41,143 nt of DNA, from NCBI GenBank assembly GCA_011364925.1, contig RDOA01000031.1, positions 1 through 41,143 of the forward strand. The letters run 5' to 3'. This document shows positions 21,456-28,886 of this stretch, piece after piece. Position 1 is the stretch's first letter; each line of letters starts with the position of its first letter. The translations under genes were made by a program, and so were the position numbers. The notes beneath the pieces were generated by a model. It did not search any database and was not told where the DNA came from. It worked only from the letters and a program-made list of their open reading frames with translations. The stretch comes from Promethearchaeota archaeon. GTDB lineage: Archaea; Asgardarchaeota; Lokiarchaeia; Sigyniarchaeales; SOKP01.

Positions 21456-22346
21456 TTAGACTTGTATCCCATCCAATAATAGTAAATTATAGATTTTCTG
21501 CCAATAGTCTTTTATGTTCCAATCTTTTTTCTTTTTTATTTCTTCAGATAAAGCCATAAAAATGCCCTTTATGCTAATTGTATGAAAATAATTGATCGAA
21601 GGAGCGATAAGGGCAATCATGTATTGTTTTTCTCCAAACCTTTCGTTTTCATCAGGATAAGAATCGAAAAAGAGATAACCACGAGTGTTCAAGTTTTTTA
21701 TTTCTAATAAAACACCCTCAGCCTTGGTAATCTTATCGTTCCCATATATTGAAGTCGCTACCGTAAATAACTGATTTACAATACTATCTAAAGAAATCGG
21801 GAACAAACTTTCTTCGGGGTAATATTTGTATAATTCTGGACCATATTTATCATCCCAAAAAGCAAGAAATAGGCAGAGAAAAAAATCATAGGAACCACTC
21901 TCCGATTCCATTTCTATATTTAAGGATGTAAAAGAGTCCTCAATTTTACTATTTAATTCCTTTATTCTTCTATTATGAGTAATTCGTCCTGCTAATGTTG
22001 CAAGTAATTCTTTCTCGTTGAATGGTTTGGTTAAATAATCGTCTACACCTAGCGATTTTCCAAATCTTATGTCTTCATAAGTAGTTTTGGCAGTAAGAAA
22101 AAGAAAAGGAATCCTATTCCAGCGAGGGTTGTTTGAAATTTCTTTAAAAAACTTATAACCATCCATTACAGGCATCATTATGTCGCTTATAATTAATTCC
22201 GGAACTTCTTCAAGACGAGATAGAACTTTTAGAGCCTCTTTTCCATTTTTTGCAGTTAAAGCCTTATAGTTATTAGATTCTAATAATAAGTTTATAGCGT
22301 ATAATAAATCAACATTATCTTCAACTACAAGAATCTGAGGCTTCAA
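21456..22346 (-). CDS. Response regulator: receiver domain plus uDENN/longin-like output domain
   Basis: Intact REC (VVED, phosphoacceptor D55 in IISDIMMPVMDG, FLTAK, TKPF). The C-terminal domain starts LFLAFWDDKYGPELYKYYP and contains DENERFGEKQYMIALI. The REC call is secure; the longin call is by motif resemblance. Confidence 0.85.
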   Translation of the reverse strand: MKPQILVVEDNVDLLYAINLLLESNNYKALTAKNGKEALKVLSRLEEVPELIISDIMMPVMDGYKFFKEISNNPRWNRIPFLFLTAKTTYEDIRFGKSLGVDDYLTKPFNEKELLATLAGRITHNRRIKELNSKIEDSFTSLNIEMESESGSYDFFLCLFLAFWDDKYGPELYKYYPEESLFPISLDSIVNQLFTVATSIYGNDKITKAEGVLLEIKNLNTRGYLFFDSYPDENERFGEKQYMIALIAPSINYFHTISIKGIFMALSEEIKKKKDWNIKDYWQKIYNLLLLDGIQV

Positions 22347-22397
22347 GATAAATCCAATTGAATATTAATTTAAAATTCTTTTACAATAGAATTAGGG

Positions 22398-25022
22398 TTA
22401 ACTATTATATATTTCTTTTTCAATTCTTGGAAGAAAAATGTAAAAAGATGTTCCATGACCATATTCGCTCTCGACATACACTTCTCCAGAGTGGAGTTTT
22501 ATCAATTCTTTCGCAATAGACAAACCTAATCCTGTTCCCGGAATATCAATGACTTCTTCTGACCTAAAAAATCTTTGGAAAATCATTGAAATATCTTTTT
22601 CTGAAATCCCTATCCCCTCATCTTTAATTTGGAATAAAACTCCGTCTCTATCATGTGTGTTATATTTCCCCTTATAATGATCGATTGCTTTGATCTCAAT
22701 GACATTCTGTTTTCTTGAATACTTTATCGCATTGTTAATAAAAATGCGAAATATTTGATCTATCTTTTTACCATCCCCGTACAGTTTAATTTCTTCGCTA
22801 ATATCTCTTATAAAAATTATATCCTTCTCTTTTCCAATTGGTTCCATTAATGTTAAAATATCATCAATAATGATCGATGGTTTATATTCGACCCATATTA
22901 ACTTAGCCTTTCCTTCGTCGATTCTAGACAGGGTTAAAATGTCTTCAATTAAATCTTTTAAGAGATAAATGTTCCTTGAAATTCCCTCCCTCAATTTCCT
23001 TTCCACTTCTGGATTAATATTATCTTTGTGGTTCTCTAGGAACTCAATCGACATTGTCAAAACGCTTACAGGTGTTCTTAGCTCGTGAGATACAGTAGAA
23101 ACAAACCGTTCTAATCTTTCTTCCGCTTCTTTTTTGGCAGTTATTTCCAATCCATAAATATTTGCATACCCTTTTCCCGGGATAGGAACAATAAATAGAT
23201 TAAAAACTCGCTTTTTAAGCTCTACATCTATTTCAATATTATTTCCCTTAGAATATGCCTCATTGACTGATTCCATAAGAATTTCTGGGATTTTACTGCC
23301 CTCTTTTATGTCAAACAGATCTTGACTCGAAGCGTTCGCGATCAGAACATACTTATCACTCACTCTAAAGATAGGATTTGGGTTTTCCATAGGGAACTTT
23401 GCCATATCAGCAATTTTTTCTTGAGCTAATTTTTGAGCACTAATGTCTGTTATAAAAGCCATGGCACCTTTAAATGTACCATTCGTATCAAGAATAGGAG
23501 AGGTTCTTAAAGTTGTAAATACTTTTCTCCCAGATTTGTGTATAAATTCAAACTCGAGATCTTCTTTTATTCCCCGTTTGCGTCGTTCAAGATTTATTTC
23601 TGCCATCTTTTTCCCCTCGTCGTCTACAAACTCATAAAGATTTGAACCCATCATCTCACTAATCTCGTAGCCAAGCATATTTGCCATGCTTTGATTTACG
23701 AAAGAAGTGTTGGCCTCATCATCAATTACCCATATGCCTTCCAAAGAATCTTCCACGAGCATTCTATATTTTTCTTCAGACTCCTTCAATACTGTTTCAA
23801 ATTTACTGTGTTCAGTAATGTCAGTAAAGTTTTGAATTATCCCTATAAGTTCTCCTTTCACATTTCTATATGGCACTGATCGCACAAGACTTACGATTTG
23901 TCTATTATCTTTCAGTTTTGATGTCATCTCATGCTCGTAATGATTAACTCCTCTTTTTATTTGCTTCATTGAACAAATTTCGGTATTACATCGATGACCC
24001 AAATAATTAAACTCCGGATCGTTACACTTTTTGCCTAATATATCTCCCTCAGAAATTTGGAAAAGTTCAGAATAAGTTTTATTAATCCGTATAACCTCAC
24101 AATCTTTCCTTATTATTCTCATTGGTAAAGAAGCGTCAAAAATTTGCCCAAATTCAGAATACATTTGTTCTAAGTCAGTTGCTCTACTTCTTAATGTATC
24201 GTCGCTTAACTTCAACTTCCTAAGGAGTAAACCGAATGGATATTTTAAACCAATCTGTATTATCGCTTTGTACATCAGGAAAAAGGCTATTATTTTTAAG
24301 ATATGACCAATAAAATTAGAAATATCAAATACTCCTACATAAAAAGTAAATGCTAATTCTGAAACTATAGTTACGCTAATTGAGGCTATGATTAAATGAA
24401 ATATTTTTGTGTCAAACTCACTTCGAAACTTATATAAAACTCCTATAGAAGCAAACAGTATCAAAATAATTATGTATTCACTAATAATTTTAAATGGCGT
24501 TTGATACCCGATCCCACCCCCAATTTCGACGTAACAGACTGGAAAAATACCGAAAAAGATGGTTAGAAAAAGAATCGAACTGATTAATATTCCACCGACC
24601 ATTAAGTAACTCGCTTTAACTTTTTTATTTATTACGAGTGAACCAAAAAGGTAAGAAAGTGATTGCCAATATCTTGCAGCGATCCACAATTGAGTTGGGA
24701 GGTTTGCATCGTAACCAATAAAAATAGCCATATCGGAGTAAGATAATGTATGGAGTAAATCTATTACGCCTACAAAAAGGAATGAAGTACCGACAATTAG
24801 AAAAAATGAACTATTCATATACTTTCGAGAATTCCAACCAATAAAAAAAATCCCTCCTGAAATTACAACACTAATTATTTCAGCAATAGAATGAAACAGA
24901 AGAAAACTATAGAATCTAAGTAAGATTGTAAGGACTAATCCTATACTAAAAATAATATATTCAAGTATCTCACGATAACCTTTTAACTTGATATTATTTG
25001 AATCTAAAGATTGATCTAACAG
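22398..25022 (-). CDS. MASE3-PAS membrane sensor histidine kinase
   Basis: MASE3 motifs (LLFHSIAE, DLLHTLSY, NLPTQLWIAARY, SELAFTFY, GHILK); 2-3 PAS units; SHELRTPV; NAIKY, DEGIG, GTGLGL. The frame is open upstream of the ORF-track ATG (24818) to a TAA at 25028-25026; the likely start is CTG at 25022. Confidence 0.9.
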   Translation of the reverse strand: MLDQSLDSNNIKLKGYREILEYIIFSIGLVLTILLRFYSFLLFHSIAEIISVVISGGIFFIGWNSRKYMNSSFFLIVGTSFLFVGVIDLLHTLSYSDMAIFIGYDANLPTQLWIAARYWQSLSYLFGSLVINKKVKASYLMVGGILISSILFLTIFFGIFPVCYVEIGGGIGYQTPFKIISEYIIILILFASIGVLYKFRSEFDTKIFHLIIASISVTIVSELAFTFYVGVFDISNFIGHILKIIAFFLMYKAIIQIGLKYPFGLLLRKLKLSDDTLRSRATDLEQMYSEFGQIFDASLPMRIIRKDCEVIRINKTYSELFQISEGDILGKKCNDPEFNYLGHRCNTEICSMKQIKRGVNHYEHEMTSKLKDNRQIVSLVRSVPYRNVKGELIGIIQNFTDITEHSKFETVLKESEEKYRMLVEDSLEGIWVIDDEANTSFVNQSMANMLGYEISEMMGSNLYEFVDDEGKKMAEINLERRKRGIKEDLEFEFIHKSGRKVFTTLRTSPILDTNGTFKGAMAFITDISAQKLAQEKIADMAKFPMENPNPIFRVSDKYVLIANASSQDLFDIKEGSKIPEILMESVNEAYSKGNNIEIDVELKKRVFNLFIVPIPGKGYANIYGLEITAKKEAEERLERFVSTVSHELRTPVSVLTMSIEFLENHKDNINPEVERKLREGISRNIYLLKDLIEDILTLSRIDEGKAKLIWVEYKPSIIIDDILTLMEPIGKEKDIIFIRDISEEIKLYGDGKKIDQIFRIFINNAIKYSRKQNVIEIKAIDHYKGKYNTHDRDGVLFQIKDEGIGISEKDISMIFQRFFRSEEVIDIPGTGLGLSIAKELIKLHSGEVYVESEYGHGTSFYIFLPRIEKEIYNS

Positions 25023-25048
25023 GCTTTATCAATTCCTTTTTTTATTTT

Positions 25049-25588
25049 TCATATAGCGGACTTCTGAAAAATGGTATAGATCGAGGTTTTAAAGATTCGG
25101 TAAGGAATGTCGTTGGGTATCAACTTTTTTATTTCACTTACTAAGAATTGGATCATCCCTTTATTAATATCTTTTTTTATAAAATCTAAGTCTGGATCAT
25201 ATTTATGAAGAAATACTGAAAAATCAAGGGCAATCTTGAATTTCCTTAGTAATTTGATGATCTCAGCAAGATATTCTAAAGCAATATTATAACGATCTCT
25301 ATCCTGCACATCTAAAACAAAAATTAGTTTACTCGCACCTTGAAGGTGATCGTAAAAATTGGTGAGATATTCTTCCCGAAACCGCTCTTGACCCCCAAAA
25401 TCCCATATACTAAATGTTGAGCCTAAGGTTCGAAATTTGTTAATTTCAAAATTCCTCGTTGGTGTAATAGAACTAAATGAAGAAAGATTTTTCACTCCTT
25501 TTAGACACATCACTATAGAAGTTTTTCCGCTGTTGTCCAACCCCATTATAATTATTTTTTTCGTATTTTTAGAATCCTTTTTCTGCAT
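25049..25588 (-). CDS. Small GTPase, Arf/Rag-like
   Basis: G1 GLDNSGKTS, G2 PT, G3 WDFGGQ, G4 HKYD, G5 TSIY. HKxD and TSI match Rag/Gtr-type rather than NKxD/SAK-type motifs. Confidence 0.9.
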   Translation of the reverse strand: MQKKDSKNTKKIIIMGLDNSGKTSIVMCLKGVKNLSSFSSITPTRNFEINKFRTLGSTFSIWDFGGQERFREEYLTNFYDHLQGASKLIFVLDVQDRDRYNIALEYLAEIIKLLRKFKIALDFSVFLHKYDPDLDFIKKDINKGMIQFLVSEIKKLIPNDIPYRIFKTSIYTIFQKSAI

Positions 25589-25619
25589 ATCTTAAGTCTA
25601 ATAAAAATCCTCCTATAAA

Positions 25620-25931
25620 TTACAAGAGCGTGTCTATTACATCGTTATTACTCATAGAGTCAATAAATGACTTAATATCAATTAGAATTTTAAAGATTTC
25701 TACATTTTTAATCTCATAATACTTAACATTATCCTTTCTTTCAAATTTGATGATGTTACTATTGGTTAAAACTTTTAAGTGTTGAGAAATAGTAGATTGA
25801 GATTTCTCTAAGGCAGATTGAATTTGAGCCGAAGTTTTACTCTCATTATTTATCAAATCTAAGATCTCTAATCGAGTTTGGTCAGCTAAAACTTTCAAAA
25901 ACTCAATAAGATCGTTTCTAAATTCGCTCAT
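25620..25931 (-). CDS. ArsR/SmtB-family transcriptional regulator
   Basis: LKVLADQTRLEILDLI...SQSTISQHLKVL...IIKFERKDNVKYY winged HTH; contains no Cys. Confidence 0.9.
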   Translation of the reverse strand: MSEFRNDLIEFLKVLADQTRLEILDLINNESKTSAQIQSALEKSQSTISQHLKVLTNSNIIKFERKDNVKYYEIKNVEIFKILIDIKSFIDSMSNNDVIDTLL

Positions 25932-26618: not shown

Positions 26619-26785
26619 ACTATCTTTTTCTTTATGTTTTTTAATTACATTTCAAATTTTTTTAAAATTGTTTCACATTTTTGGAGAAGAGTGAATAGAT
26701 TTAGAAATATCTCAATTAAGAAATGTCTATTGTTCTTAACTACAATACTCGATGAGTTAATCGAAATTTTGAAAAAAACAATTAG

Positions 26786-26892
26786 AGCCAGCGGTGGGAT
26801 TTGCACCCACGATGCTGAAAGCAATGGCTCTGCAGGCCACCTCCTTAACTATTACCGTAATAGGATAAATCCCTTATCTCGGATACGCTGGC
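26786..26892 (-). tRNA. tRNA-Cys(GCA), atypical: long variable arm and ~24-nt D-loop insertion or intron
   Basis: Acceptor stem GCCAGCG/CGCTGGC with U73; anticodon arm GTGGC-CT GCA GA-GCCAT; T arm GTGGG-TGCAAAT-CCCAC; D stem TCCG/AGGA; CCA not encoded; divergent from cysS. Confidence 0.88.
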
Positions 26893-27002
26893 AGAAAATT
26901 TAATCGTACTGTTATTTAAGTTATATTATATTATTATAAGGTTAAAGATTAATTTTATTAAAATTTATTTTTATCATAATAAATCTTTGGTGAATCAATC
27001 TC

Positions 27003-28439
27003 ATGAAAGTATACAATAGTCTTACATTCGAGAAAGAAGAGTTTAAAACCCTTGAGCCAGGAAAAGTGAAAATGTACGTTTGCGGCGTGACAGTTTATGG
27101 TTCCCCCCACCTTGGACATGTGAAGTCTGCTGTTGCCTTCGATTTAATTCACAGATATCTAAAATATAAAGGCTACGATGTAAACATCGTCAAAAATTAC
27201 ACAGATATCGACGATAAAATAATCAAAGCGTCTCAAGAAAGCGACCTTGATTTTAGAACTCTAAGTAATCGATATGTCGAAGAATACGAAGAAATCATGG
27301 AAATGTTGAATGTAGCTAAGGACACGTATAATCCTCGTGCTACTGAGGTAATGGACCTTATAATTAAATTCGCTCAGGAACTCATTAAAAAAGGACATGC
27401 GTATGAGAAAAATGGCTCAGTATATTTTTCAGTCCAATCGTTCCCTAAATATGATACAATTCTCCAAAGAGTTAAGGACACGCAAGCTGAAGACGAGGAT
27501 TATATTGCTGATCAAGATACTGCGTTTGGAGAAGATAAACTTGATGTTAGAGATTTTGCCTTGTGGAAGAAAATGAAAGAAGGAGAGCCTTATTGGGAAA
27601 GTCCATGGGGTAAAGGGCGTCCTGGGTGGCATATAGAATGTTCTGTCATGATTTTAAACTTCTTAGGGGAGTCAATTGACATTCACGGTGGTGGTCAAGA
27701 TTTAAAATTTCCGCACCACAGAAACGAGATTGCGCAATCTGAGTCCTATACGGGAAAACCATTCGCCAAATATTTCTTACATAACGGATATGTAAATGTG
27801 AACAACGAAAAGATGTCAAAAAGTCTTAATAATTTTTTTACAGTGGCGGATATAGCAAAAGAATACGACCCTATGGTTATCCGTTGGTATCTAATTTCAA
27901 GTCATTATAGGAGCTCAAACAATTATACACCTGATAGCATGGAACCGGCAAAGAAGACCTATGAGCGACTAATAAACACGATTAAAAAAGTAAATAGCGC
28001 CGATTATAGTAATGCAAAATCGGATGAAATAAATACTCTAATTGAAAAAATTGATGTTAGTAAAAACAAAATTATTGAAGCAATGGACGATGATTTTGAT
28101 ACACCTGTAGCTTTAGCAGAGCTACTAACGCTATTTAGGGAAATTAATAAAGCAATCTTACAAGATAACATAAAAATTAATAAAGATTTTAAGGATATGT
28201 TCTCGGACTTTTTGAAATTTATTGAATCGATTCTTGGAATTTTCCCTTTTCTTAATTCGAAATCTAAATCCTTTTTAGCTGAGAGCACAGATGAGAAAGA
28301 CAATCTGATTAAAAATCTTATAAATTTGGTAATTGAAATCCGTTCAAAATTGAGAGAGAAAAAAATTTACGATATCAGCGACTCAATTCGAGATCGTTTA
28401 AGAGAGTTGGGGATAGAAGTAGAAGATAAAAAAGTGTAA
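27003..28439 (+). CDS. cysS: Cysteinyl-tRNA synthetase
   Basis: MYVCGVTVY, HLGH, NYTDIDDKII, DFALWK, GRPGWHIECS, DIHGGG.DL.FPHH.NE, KMSKS, DDFDTP. Confidence 0.97.
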   Translation: MKVYNSLTFEKEEFKTLEPGKVKMYVCGVTVYGSPHLGHVKSAVAFDLIHRYLKYKGYDVNIVKNYTDIDDKIIKASQESDLDFRTLSNRYVEEYEEIMEMLNVAKDTYNPRATEVMDLIIKFAQELIKKGHAYEKNGSVYFSVQSFPKYDTILQRVKDTQAEDEDYIADQDTAFGEDKLDVRDFALWKKMKEGEPYWESPWGKGRPGWHIECSVMILNFLGESIDIHGGGQDLKFPHHRNEIAQSESYTGKPFAKYFLHNGYVNVNNEKMSKSLNNFFTVADIAKEYDPMVIRWYLISSHYRSSNNYTPDSMEPAKKTYERLINTIKKVNSADYSNAKSDEINTLIEKIDVSKNKIIEAMDDDFDTPVALAELLTLFREINKAILQDNIKINKDFKDMFSDFLKFIESILGIFPFLNSKSKSFLAESTDEKDNLIKNLINLVIEIRSKLREKKIYDISDSIRDRLRELGIEVEDKKV

Positions 28440-28481: not shown

Positions 28482-28886
28482 TCATTGCTGAACAGAACTG
28501 CTGACTATCTCATTACCATCTTCGAGATGCTTATAATGCTTGTATAGAATTGGTCCAAGCTTTACTTCTTTGGTTGTTGAAACGGTTAATACTTGATCTT
28601 CACCCGCGTATAAAACTAGTAGATACCCCTTTTTCGCCTTAATATAGGACTGTTCAAATTCCCCTAGTCCCATCTCTTCAATTGCTCGCTCGCTTAAAGA
28701 GCAGAGAGCTGCCGTCATAGCAGCAAATCGCATATCGTCTGCACTCGATGGCAAGACTGATGCTAGAGGTTGACCAGTATCTGCCGTAAGTTGCGCAGCC
28801 TTTACCCCATCGACATTATCCATAATGTCTCTTAGTAATTCCTCAAGGGAACTCTTAAACTCCCTTCTCTTCTTTAACCCTTTCAT
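28482..28886 (-). CDS. Roadblock/LC7 (MglB/LAMTOR-like) domain protein
   Basis: GVKAAQLTADTGQPLAS, RFAAMTAALCSLSERAIEEMGLGEFEQSYIKAKKGYLLV, VKLG. Confidence 0.9.
   Translation of the reverse strand: MKGLKKRREFKSSLEELLRDIMDNVDGVKAAQLTADTGQPLASVLPSSADDMRFAAMTAALCSLSERAIEEMGLGEFEQSYIKAKKGYLLVLYAGEDQVLTVSTTKEVKLGPILYKHYKHLEDGNEIVSSSVQQ

Follow-up and report, generated by a model that had tools for sequence, protein, structure and literature searches.

The minus strand of positions 26786-26892 carries a genuine tRNA-Cys gene, an identity that was confirmed, in which the cysteine anticodon GCA is combined with a long, base-paired variable arm. These positions, like all others given here, refer to the window, the whole stretch of 41,143 nucleotides of DNA that was analysed. 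The explanation that we consider probable is that this is the single working tRNA-Cys gene of the genome, that an intron would be spliced from its D-loop while the arm would be kept, and that the tRNA would be charged in the ordinary way by the class I CysRS encoded next to it. The possession of a long or a short variable arm is among the most stable properties of tRNAs; long arms are textbook marks of the serine, leucine, selenocysteine and bacterial tyrosine tRNAs, and SerRS and LeuRS recognize them. The sole, essential cysteine tRNA of an Asgard archaeon appears to have gained such a paired arm, which would mean that the boundary between the tRNA classes can be crossed with the genetic code unchanged. 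The case also provides a natural test of the extra RNA that is tolerated by a class I CysRS and by the other translation machinery.

The anatomy of the gene was read directly from the minus strand and agreed with the match of R1, a covariance model built from intron-free orthologues. The precursor body has 107 nt, a length that exceeds even that of class II tRNAs, and CCA is not encoded. The 5' exon (26878..26892) contains the 5' strand of the acceptor stem, U8 and A9, the 5' strand of the D stem (UCCG), and A14 and G15, as delimited by comparison with the intron-less orthologues L005-L007, L009 and L011. The 3' exon (26786..26851) contains the remainder of the D arm, the anticodon arm, the variable arm, the T arm, the 3' strand of the acceptor stem and the discriminator U73. 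A cloverleaf can be drawn with an acceptor stem of 7 bp (GCCAGCG/CGCUGGC) and with anticodon (GUGGC/GCCAU) and T stems of 5 bp each. The D stem, preceded by U8 and A9, has only 3 bp (UCC/GGA), with G13 opposite A22. The anticodon loop, CUGCAGA, includes G37 and the anticodon GCA (positions 34-36; 26831..26833), and both the anticodon and U73, the combination expected of a tRNA-Cys, are invariant among the orthologues.

Two regions depart from what is usual in a tRNA of this specificity. The variable region (26811..26823) does not have the 4-5 nt of a class I loop; it has 13 nt, which form a 4-bp hairpin (UGCU/AGCA) with the loop UUC, followed by the tail UC. The elbow is not the standard one (G18 G19; U54 U55 C56) either. 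The T arm (26794..26810) reads GUGGG-UGCAAAU-CCCAC, with G55 in the place of U, and the D-loop, AGUAGUUA, has A-G at the usual G18-G19 positions, matching the G55 of the T-loop. The other tRNAs of the same genome have the standard elbow, with T-loops of the form UUCRAAU and GG in the D-loop. The preliminary description of this DNA had listed the GCA anticodon, G37 and U73, as well as the 13-nt variable hairpin, the 3-bp D stem with G13-A22 and the T-loop UGCAAAU (TGCAAAT in the DNA), and the strand sequence bore out every one of these elements.

Putative signals for expression are found on both sides of the gene and on its strand. A TATA-like box, TTAAATAA (26912..26919), lies 20-27 nt upstream of the start of the tRNA and may be the archaeal promoter element, while a run of seven T (26772..26778), 8 nt past the discriminator, is likely the transcription stop. 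In fold predictions, the cloverleaf including the arm lies no more than 0.7 kcal/mol from the minimum free energy. Model R1 scored 91.1 bits at the gene, and its next match in the genome, at 43.6 bits, is a tRNA-Phe. An independent contig, obtained from marine sediment in 2015 by another study, shows no changes over the 107 nt of the gene vs 10 changes over 286 flanking nt, and a compensatory replacement of U28-A42 by C28-G42 was seen in a close relative. Among the sequencing runs listed for this locus there was no RNA run. An open frame of 89 aa on the plus strand (26634-26903) runs antisense across the entire tRNA gene and is probably no gene.

The excess length of the precursor is explained by a 26-nt insert in the D-loop, between positions 15 and 16 (26852..26877, minus strand). 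In intron-less orthologues of the same genus the D arm reads ..UCCG AGUAGUUA AGGA.., and comparison with them gives a mature tRNA of 81 nt. Other relatives have unrelated inserts of 26-29 nt at the identical site; one has a canonical anticodon-loop intron instead, and in still others an intron interrupts the T-loop or separates U33 from G34. Every D-loop insert ends in CGGN-A(A/G), the complement of the exon bases C11-C12-G13. The central helix would form between the exon CCG and the intron CGG (C11-G, C12-G, G13-C), with a fourth pair that is U10-U here and U-A or U-G in relatives. It would be bordered by the 3-nt bulges AG|A and AA|U, both cut after the second bulge base, and a hairpin internal to the intron directly follows. 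The outer helix is weak, and the segment is, judging from these sequence features, a relaxed bulge-helix-bulge (BHB) intron. In agreement with this, the insert is absent from orthologues and the genome has two genes for the splicing endonuclease EndA (C29, C22).

The intron also determines the visibility of the gene. ARAGORN returned no match in the window, and the Rfam tRNA model returned none there at its gathering threshold, the copy in the window giving only a partial match of 14.6 bits. Both programs miss this copy because of the 26-nt D-loop intron. ARAGORN run with its intron option likewise missed the gene, because that option models only anticodon-loop introns. ARAGORN identifies intron-free orthologues as tRNA-Cys(gca), and with Rfam RF00005 these orthologues reach 54.9 bits. 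Since the standard tRNA finders miss the gene, genomes of this kind appear to be without a tRNA-Cys. In length, motif, class of position and escape from annotators, the insert resembles the hidden D-arm introns described in Asgard archaea (bioRxiv 10.64898/2026.10.13.758758); nothing notable sets it apart from them, and it can be regarded as an ordinary member of that group. Interruption is common in this genome: most of its tRNA genes are interrupted, with 11 uninterrupted ones reported by ARAGORN and 24 Rfam tRNA matches over the cut-off. Several other tRNA genes have inserts in the D- or T-loop, and interrupted examples are found at C16:65771-65831, C101:67763-67821 and C64:8891-8994.

The long variable arm was followed in a set of orthologues collected from 112 genomes of the order. 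It is present in 55 of the 112 genomes with a classified tRNA-Cys, always with 12-14 nt and at a constant position, and it spans two families. Its helix is paired in 100% of the cells scored (23 distinct sequences). Both partners are replaced in two of the four pairs (U-A or G-C in place of C-G, and C-G in place of U-A), and none of 500 shuffles equalled the observed covariation, which is comparable with that of the T stem. The stem variants are UGCU/AGCA, UGCC/GGCA, UGGC/GCCA, UGUC/GACA, UGCC/GGUA and the 3-bp UGC/GCA, and the loops found in relatives include the GNRA sequences GCAA and GAAA. These features suggest that the arm would be part of the mature tRNA-Cys, because it is paired and covarying, has no BHB, would leave only 2-4 nt if excised and shows no intron-like turnover.

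Sister species of the same genus have a 5-nt variable loop, UAUUC, in an otherwise near-identical tRNA. When the 9-nt hairpin was left out of the comparison, short-loop tRNA-Cys of the genus matched the body of the tRNA at 93% and 89% identity, the canonical tRNA-Cys of relatives at 67-72%, and serine, leucine and other tRNAs at only 57-64%. The arm was therefore inserted within a tRNA-Cys lineage and is not the remnant of a tRNA-Ser or tRNA-Leu, and descent of the body from either of these was rejected. The preliminary description had spoken of a class II, Ser/Leu-like body and had proposed that it derived from such a tRNA. The shape stands, in the class II-like arm and the 3-bp D stem; the origin does not. 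A variable region of more than 10 nt that forms a stem-loop is characteristic of class II tRNAs, and the 13 nt of this one, with 4 covarying base pairs, agree with that. The G73 or A73 and the Ser or Leu anticodon of those tRNAs are missing, their places being taken by U73 and GCA. The arm also differs in length and geometry from those of the genome's own class II tRNAs: the serine arms have 14-15 nt, with an unpaired 5' U, 4 bp, a tetraloop and UC, and the leucine arms have 14 nt, while the cysteine arm has 13 nt and its first base is paired.

The genome from which the window was taken is a metagenome-assembled genome of a Loki-type Asgard archaeon (Promethearchaeota), 3.9 Mb in size, with 33% G+C, 100% completeness and 112 contigs. 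The preliminary description had called for a check for a second, canonical tRNA-Cys and for SepRS and SepCysS. No second tRNA-Cys was found in the genome in three scans, a custom scan for tRNAs with GCA anticodons and searches with models R1 and R2, and the gene at 26786-26892 was the only credible match of the custom scan over the whole genome. These scans could overlook a further tRNA-Cys gene with interruptions at several unusual sites. SepRS and SepCysS were not found in the genome, where the best matches reached 69 and 31 bits vs cut-offs of 381 and 365 and resemble PheRS and aminotransferases. The single CysRS of the genome is the product of cysS (27003..28439, plus strand), which is oriented divergently from the tRNA gene, 111 nt away from it. 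The protein is a full-length class I CysRS of 478 aa, with a Pfam tRNA-synt_1e match of 408 bits (2.5e-122) and a DALR_2 anticodon-binding domain. Given the sole tRNA-Cys, the one CysRS and the failure to find SepRS and SepCysS, the tRNA and the adjoining enzyme are therefore the only visible route to Cys-tRNA in this cell. The earlier idea of a tRNA dedicated to the adjacent CysRS consequently has no special meaning here: a sole tRNA-Cys and a sole CysRS are a housekeeping pair.

Outside Promethearchaeota, the enzyme has its nearest relatives in the genome collection among bacteria (Clostridium, Desulfarculus and others; 41-48% identity), which would fit a bacterial origin of the archaeal enzyme. 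End-to-end tblastn alignments showed no indels separating the CysRS of long-arm genomes from that of short-loop genomes. The juxtaposition of the tRNA gene with cysS, as reported in the preliminary description, is correct and is kept in the genus and in some of its relatives; it is absent at most loci of a neighbouring genus (g12) and of a second family (f4). Overall, a tRNA-Cys lies within 1.5 kb of the CysRS gene at about 35 of 47 CysRS-centred loci of Promethearchaeota. In the window, the group formed by Lrp, tRNA-Cys and cysS is flanked (21456-25931 and 28482-28886) by genes for a Gtr1/RagA/Arf-like GTPase, an ArsR regulator, a MASE3-PAS histidine kinase and a Roadblock/LC7 protein.

Two lineages of tRNA-Cys were distinguished within the order. 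The first has the A18/G55 elbow and the 3-bp D stem, one of its sub-forms having gone back to U55, and it adjoins cysS in the genus of the window and in some relatives. The second, a canonical tRNA-Cys, has a D-loop with GG, the T-loop UUCAAAU and a 4-bp D stem, often with introns (L169-L177, L144, L149, L271-L290); it was not found in the genome of the window. The canonical form is present in 39 of the 48 genomes with a full-length SepRS vs 4 of the 98 SepRS-negative genomes, and it looks like the partner tRNA of SepRS. Both SepRS and the canonical tRNA-Cys are missing from 48 of the 55 long-arm genomes, and among the genomes with the unusual elbow and a short loop 27 of 34 have a full-length SepRS, counts that come from close kin, are not independent and amount to about three to four evolutionary replicates in the whole order. 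The arm coexists with a full SepRS in four genomes. Three of them (G027, G029 and G116) also hold a verified canonical tRNA-Cys, and in the fourth (G109), which is 72% complete, no second tRNA was found. Genomes whose only tRNA-Cys has the long arm are, with few exceptions, genomes without SepRS, and this association is a hint that the arm may be more than neutral.

The order of events in this genus was examined in a quick IQ-TREE phylogeny of CysRS, in which the base of the long-arm group is poorly supported (87, with G023 not separated from it). The tree divides the genus into two clades, one of which has short loops and SepRS. In the other, SepRS is lost first, in the short-loop genomes G007 and G023, and the 24 long-arm rows then cluster together, poorly resolved.

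According to the explanation that we favor, the gene would be transcribed from the minus strand, the archaeal splicing endonuclease would excise the 26-nt BHB intron from the D-loop, and the 81-nt product would retain the 13-nt variable region as a 4-bp hairpin. The adjoining bacterial-type class I CysRS would then charge the tRNA directly with cysteine, reading U73 and GCA. Class I synthetases approach the tRNA with its variable region toward the solvent, where an arm costs little. By analogy with this geometry, CysRS would approach on the side opposite the variable region, and the arm would be tolerated because this approach avoids it. The major determinants of CysRS are indeed U73 and GCA (PMC9976931), and we infer that CysRS alone does the charging because the sole tRNA-Cys is accompanied by a single CysRS. 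The arm would have arisen as an insertion of 8-9 nt into the variable loop of a tRNA-Cys of the A18/G55, 3-bp-D-stem lineage. In this genus it would have been fixed in a clade that was already without SepRS and its companion canonical tRNA-Cys. Selection would preserve the pairing of the insert, since a loop of 13 unpaired nt would impair folding, and the arm probably adds no new amino-acid identity. Since both the elbow and the arm are unusual, such a tRNA might need a further partner.

Three other explanations of the gene and its arm were weighed against this one, and all of them are much less probable. The preliminary description had allowed for removal of the arm as an intron, in which case the 13-nt hairpin would be an excised intervening sequence and the mature tRNA an ordinary class I molecule. 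The heavy interruption of the tRNA genes of this genome, the 5-nt loop at the same place in sister species, and the variable-region insertions, some without a canonical motif, reported in Asgard tRNA genes (10.64898/2026.10.13.758758) are in its favor. Upon inspection, however, no BHB could be drawn at the hairpin: its loop has 3-4 nt (3 nt here), and it lacks both the 3-nt bulges and a flanking exon-intron helix. The hairpin is also shorter than typical archaeal tRNA introns, the Asgard intervening sequences having median lengths of 22-23 nt (10.64898/2026.10.13.758758). In addition, the true introns of the same gene vary in presence, site and sequence among close relatives, whereas two families share the length and position of the arm, the stem of which covaries as the T stem does; several of the variants have GNRA tetraloops, which are typical of structural hairpins. 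Excision is thus very unlikely. It is still less likely that SerRS or LeuRS also charges the tRNA by way of the arm and makes cysteine codons ambiguous. SerRS recognizes its tRNAs mainly by a long arm, which also belongs to the identity elements of archaeal LeuRS (PMC7609411; PMC9976931), and nematode nev-tRNAs, with class II bodies and foreign anticodons, can be leucylated (PMC3333845). Nonetheless, every member of the set has U73, and SerRS needs G73 and LeuRS A73 (PMC7609411; PMC9976931); the 13-nt arm with its paired first base is unlike the genome's own Ser and Leu arms; and mischarging of the sole tRNA-Cys would affect every cysteine codon. The suggestion that several synthetases may charge this tRNA therefore finds no support, and it gains none from SepRS and SepCysS, which were not found in the genome. 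The least probable alternative, which we hardly credit, is that the gene is a decaying pseudo-tRNA and that the working tRNA-Cys, unassembled or concealed by introns, is encoded elsewhere. Such a view could appeal to the standard finders, which miss the gene, to the non-canonical elbow bases and to an assembly in 112 contigs. Against it are the intact stems, the compensatory change in a close relative, the unchanged gene between the changed flanks of the independent contig, the conservation of the architecture across dozens of genomes, the TATA-like and T-run signals on either side, and the three independent scans, in which no other candidate appeared.

A fourth alternative, which concerns the purpose of the arm, is doubtful but carries more weight than the preceding three. 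It holds that the arm is an anti-determinant against class II enzymes, above all SepRS, and makes the armed tRNA a substrate of CysRS only, while SepRS uses the canonical tRNA-Cys; its second part, which we hold just as tentatively, is that the SepRS system was later lost here and left the armed tRNA as the sole tRNA-Cys. SepRS belongs to class II and resembles PheRS; A47, a base of the variable loop, is among its minor determinants (PMC9976931), and the isoacceptor preference known from M. mazei is a precedent (PMC9976931). The distributions given above agree with the idea, as to the scarcity of SepRS and the canonical tRNA among long-arm genomes, the frequency of SepRS among short-loop genomes, the restriction of the canonical form mainly to SepRS-positive genomes, and its presence in three of the four genomes that have both the arm and SepRS. 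However, these distributions come from close kin, with only about three to four independent replicates in the order. In the CysRS tree the long-arm rows are poorly resolved from one short-loop genome and the loss of SepRS (G007, G023) precedes the arm, and an arm that follows SepRS loss fits a released constraint better than active insulation. Moreover, the short-loop form coexists with SepRS without any arm in SepRS-positive genomes, and G109, 72% complete, has the arm and SepRS with no second tRNA found. In its widest form, the proposal would be that Promethearchaeia run two separate systems, SepRS with the canonical tRNA-Cys and a bacterial-type CysRS with its own altered-elbow tRNA-Cys, often gene-linked, with the arm as an orthogonality device that excludes SepRS and with this genome as the end state, in which a class II-shaped tRNA is the sole cysteine adaptor. 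We regard this as an unlikely though not far-fetched scenario. The arm would be of greater interest if it did separate the CysRS and SepRS systems. Charging by CysRS of a tRNA whose arm is merely tolerated is the explanation that we retain; under it as well, the link with SepRS loss and the co-occurrence of the canonical tRNA-Cys with SepRS are relevant to the partitioning and loss of the two routes to Cys-tRNA among the closest archaeal relatives of eukaryotes.

Among known tRNAs, the canonical archaeal tRNA-Cys(GCA), a class I tRNA and a substrate of CysRS and, where present, of SepRS, comes closest. The tRNA of the window shares with it the GCA anticodon, G37, U73, the 7/5 arrangement of the acceptor and T stems, a possible G15-C48 pair and the lack of an encoded CCA. 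Unlike it, it has a 13-nt hairpin in place of 4-5 nt, a 3-bp D stem with G13/A22, A18/G55 in place of G18/U55 and an intron in the D-loop. With the class II tRNAs (tRNA-Ser, tRNA-Leu and bacterial tRNA-Tyr) it has in common the paired extra arm, the 3-bp D stem and the unpaired bases at 13 and 22, but its anticodon and discriminator are those of cysteine, its arm is shorter and begins with a paired base rather than a spacer, and this arm was inserted recently instead of being inherited from a class II tRNA.

Another tRNA that combines U73 and GCA with a long variable arm is the selC* tRNA-Cys of anaerobic bacteria, which is encoded close to a gene of the cysS type (Mukai et al. 2017, PMC5389517; PMC7609411). 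It has an 8/4 arrangement of the acceptor and T stems, a bulged A51a and a tRNA-Sec-like body, and it is an extra tRNA (PMC7609411). In members of the Desulfobacterales it is served by a CysRS* without an anticodon-binding domain (PMC7609411). The archaeal tRNA shares with selC* the cysteine identity elements (U73, GCA), the long arm and the nearby cysS-type gene, but it has the 7/5 arrangement, is the sole tRNA-Cys, is accompanied by a full-length CysRS with DALR_2 and belongs to an archaeal host. A selC* identity was accordingly rejected on account of the 7-bp acceptor and 5-bp T stems, the only tRNA-Cys and only CysRS of the genome, and the presence of DALR_2. The nematode nev-tRNAs, accessory tRNAs that combine a class II body with an altered anticodon and receive leucine (PMC3333845), are alike in carrying a class II-type arm on an anticodon other than that of Ser or Leu. 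Here, on the other hand, it is a cysteine body that gained the arm, and the tRNA is essential. The preliminary description had asked whether this architecture was already a documented norm of the lineage. The architecture is widespread there, but our literature searches yielded no account of an archaeal tRNA-Cys with a long arm. The long-arm tRNA-Cys of the window is a real and conserved variant, apparently undescribed and most likely ordinary in function, and the interpretation first given to it is, as a whole, partly supported.

Further arrangements of the gene were observed among the relatives. In five of them (L074 and L077-L080, in genomes G125, G066, G070, G091 and G129), an armed tRNA-Cys has an intron between U33 and G34 of the anticodon loop. 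These introns end in GCCG-AA|, an arrangement of helix plus bulge like that of the D-loop intron. In seven others (L070, L071, L106-L108, L113 and L137, in genomes G148, G106, G126, G115, G057, G092 and G142), the 5' strand of the acceptor stem was not found beside the remaining tRNA-Cys, and the sequence reads ..GUUUGCGCAA followed by CCGAG... The junction between GUUUGCGCAA and CCGAG suggests that the gene of these seven relatives has an intron near position 9/10, or that it is a split gene.
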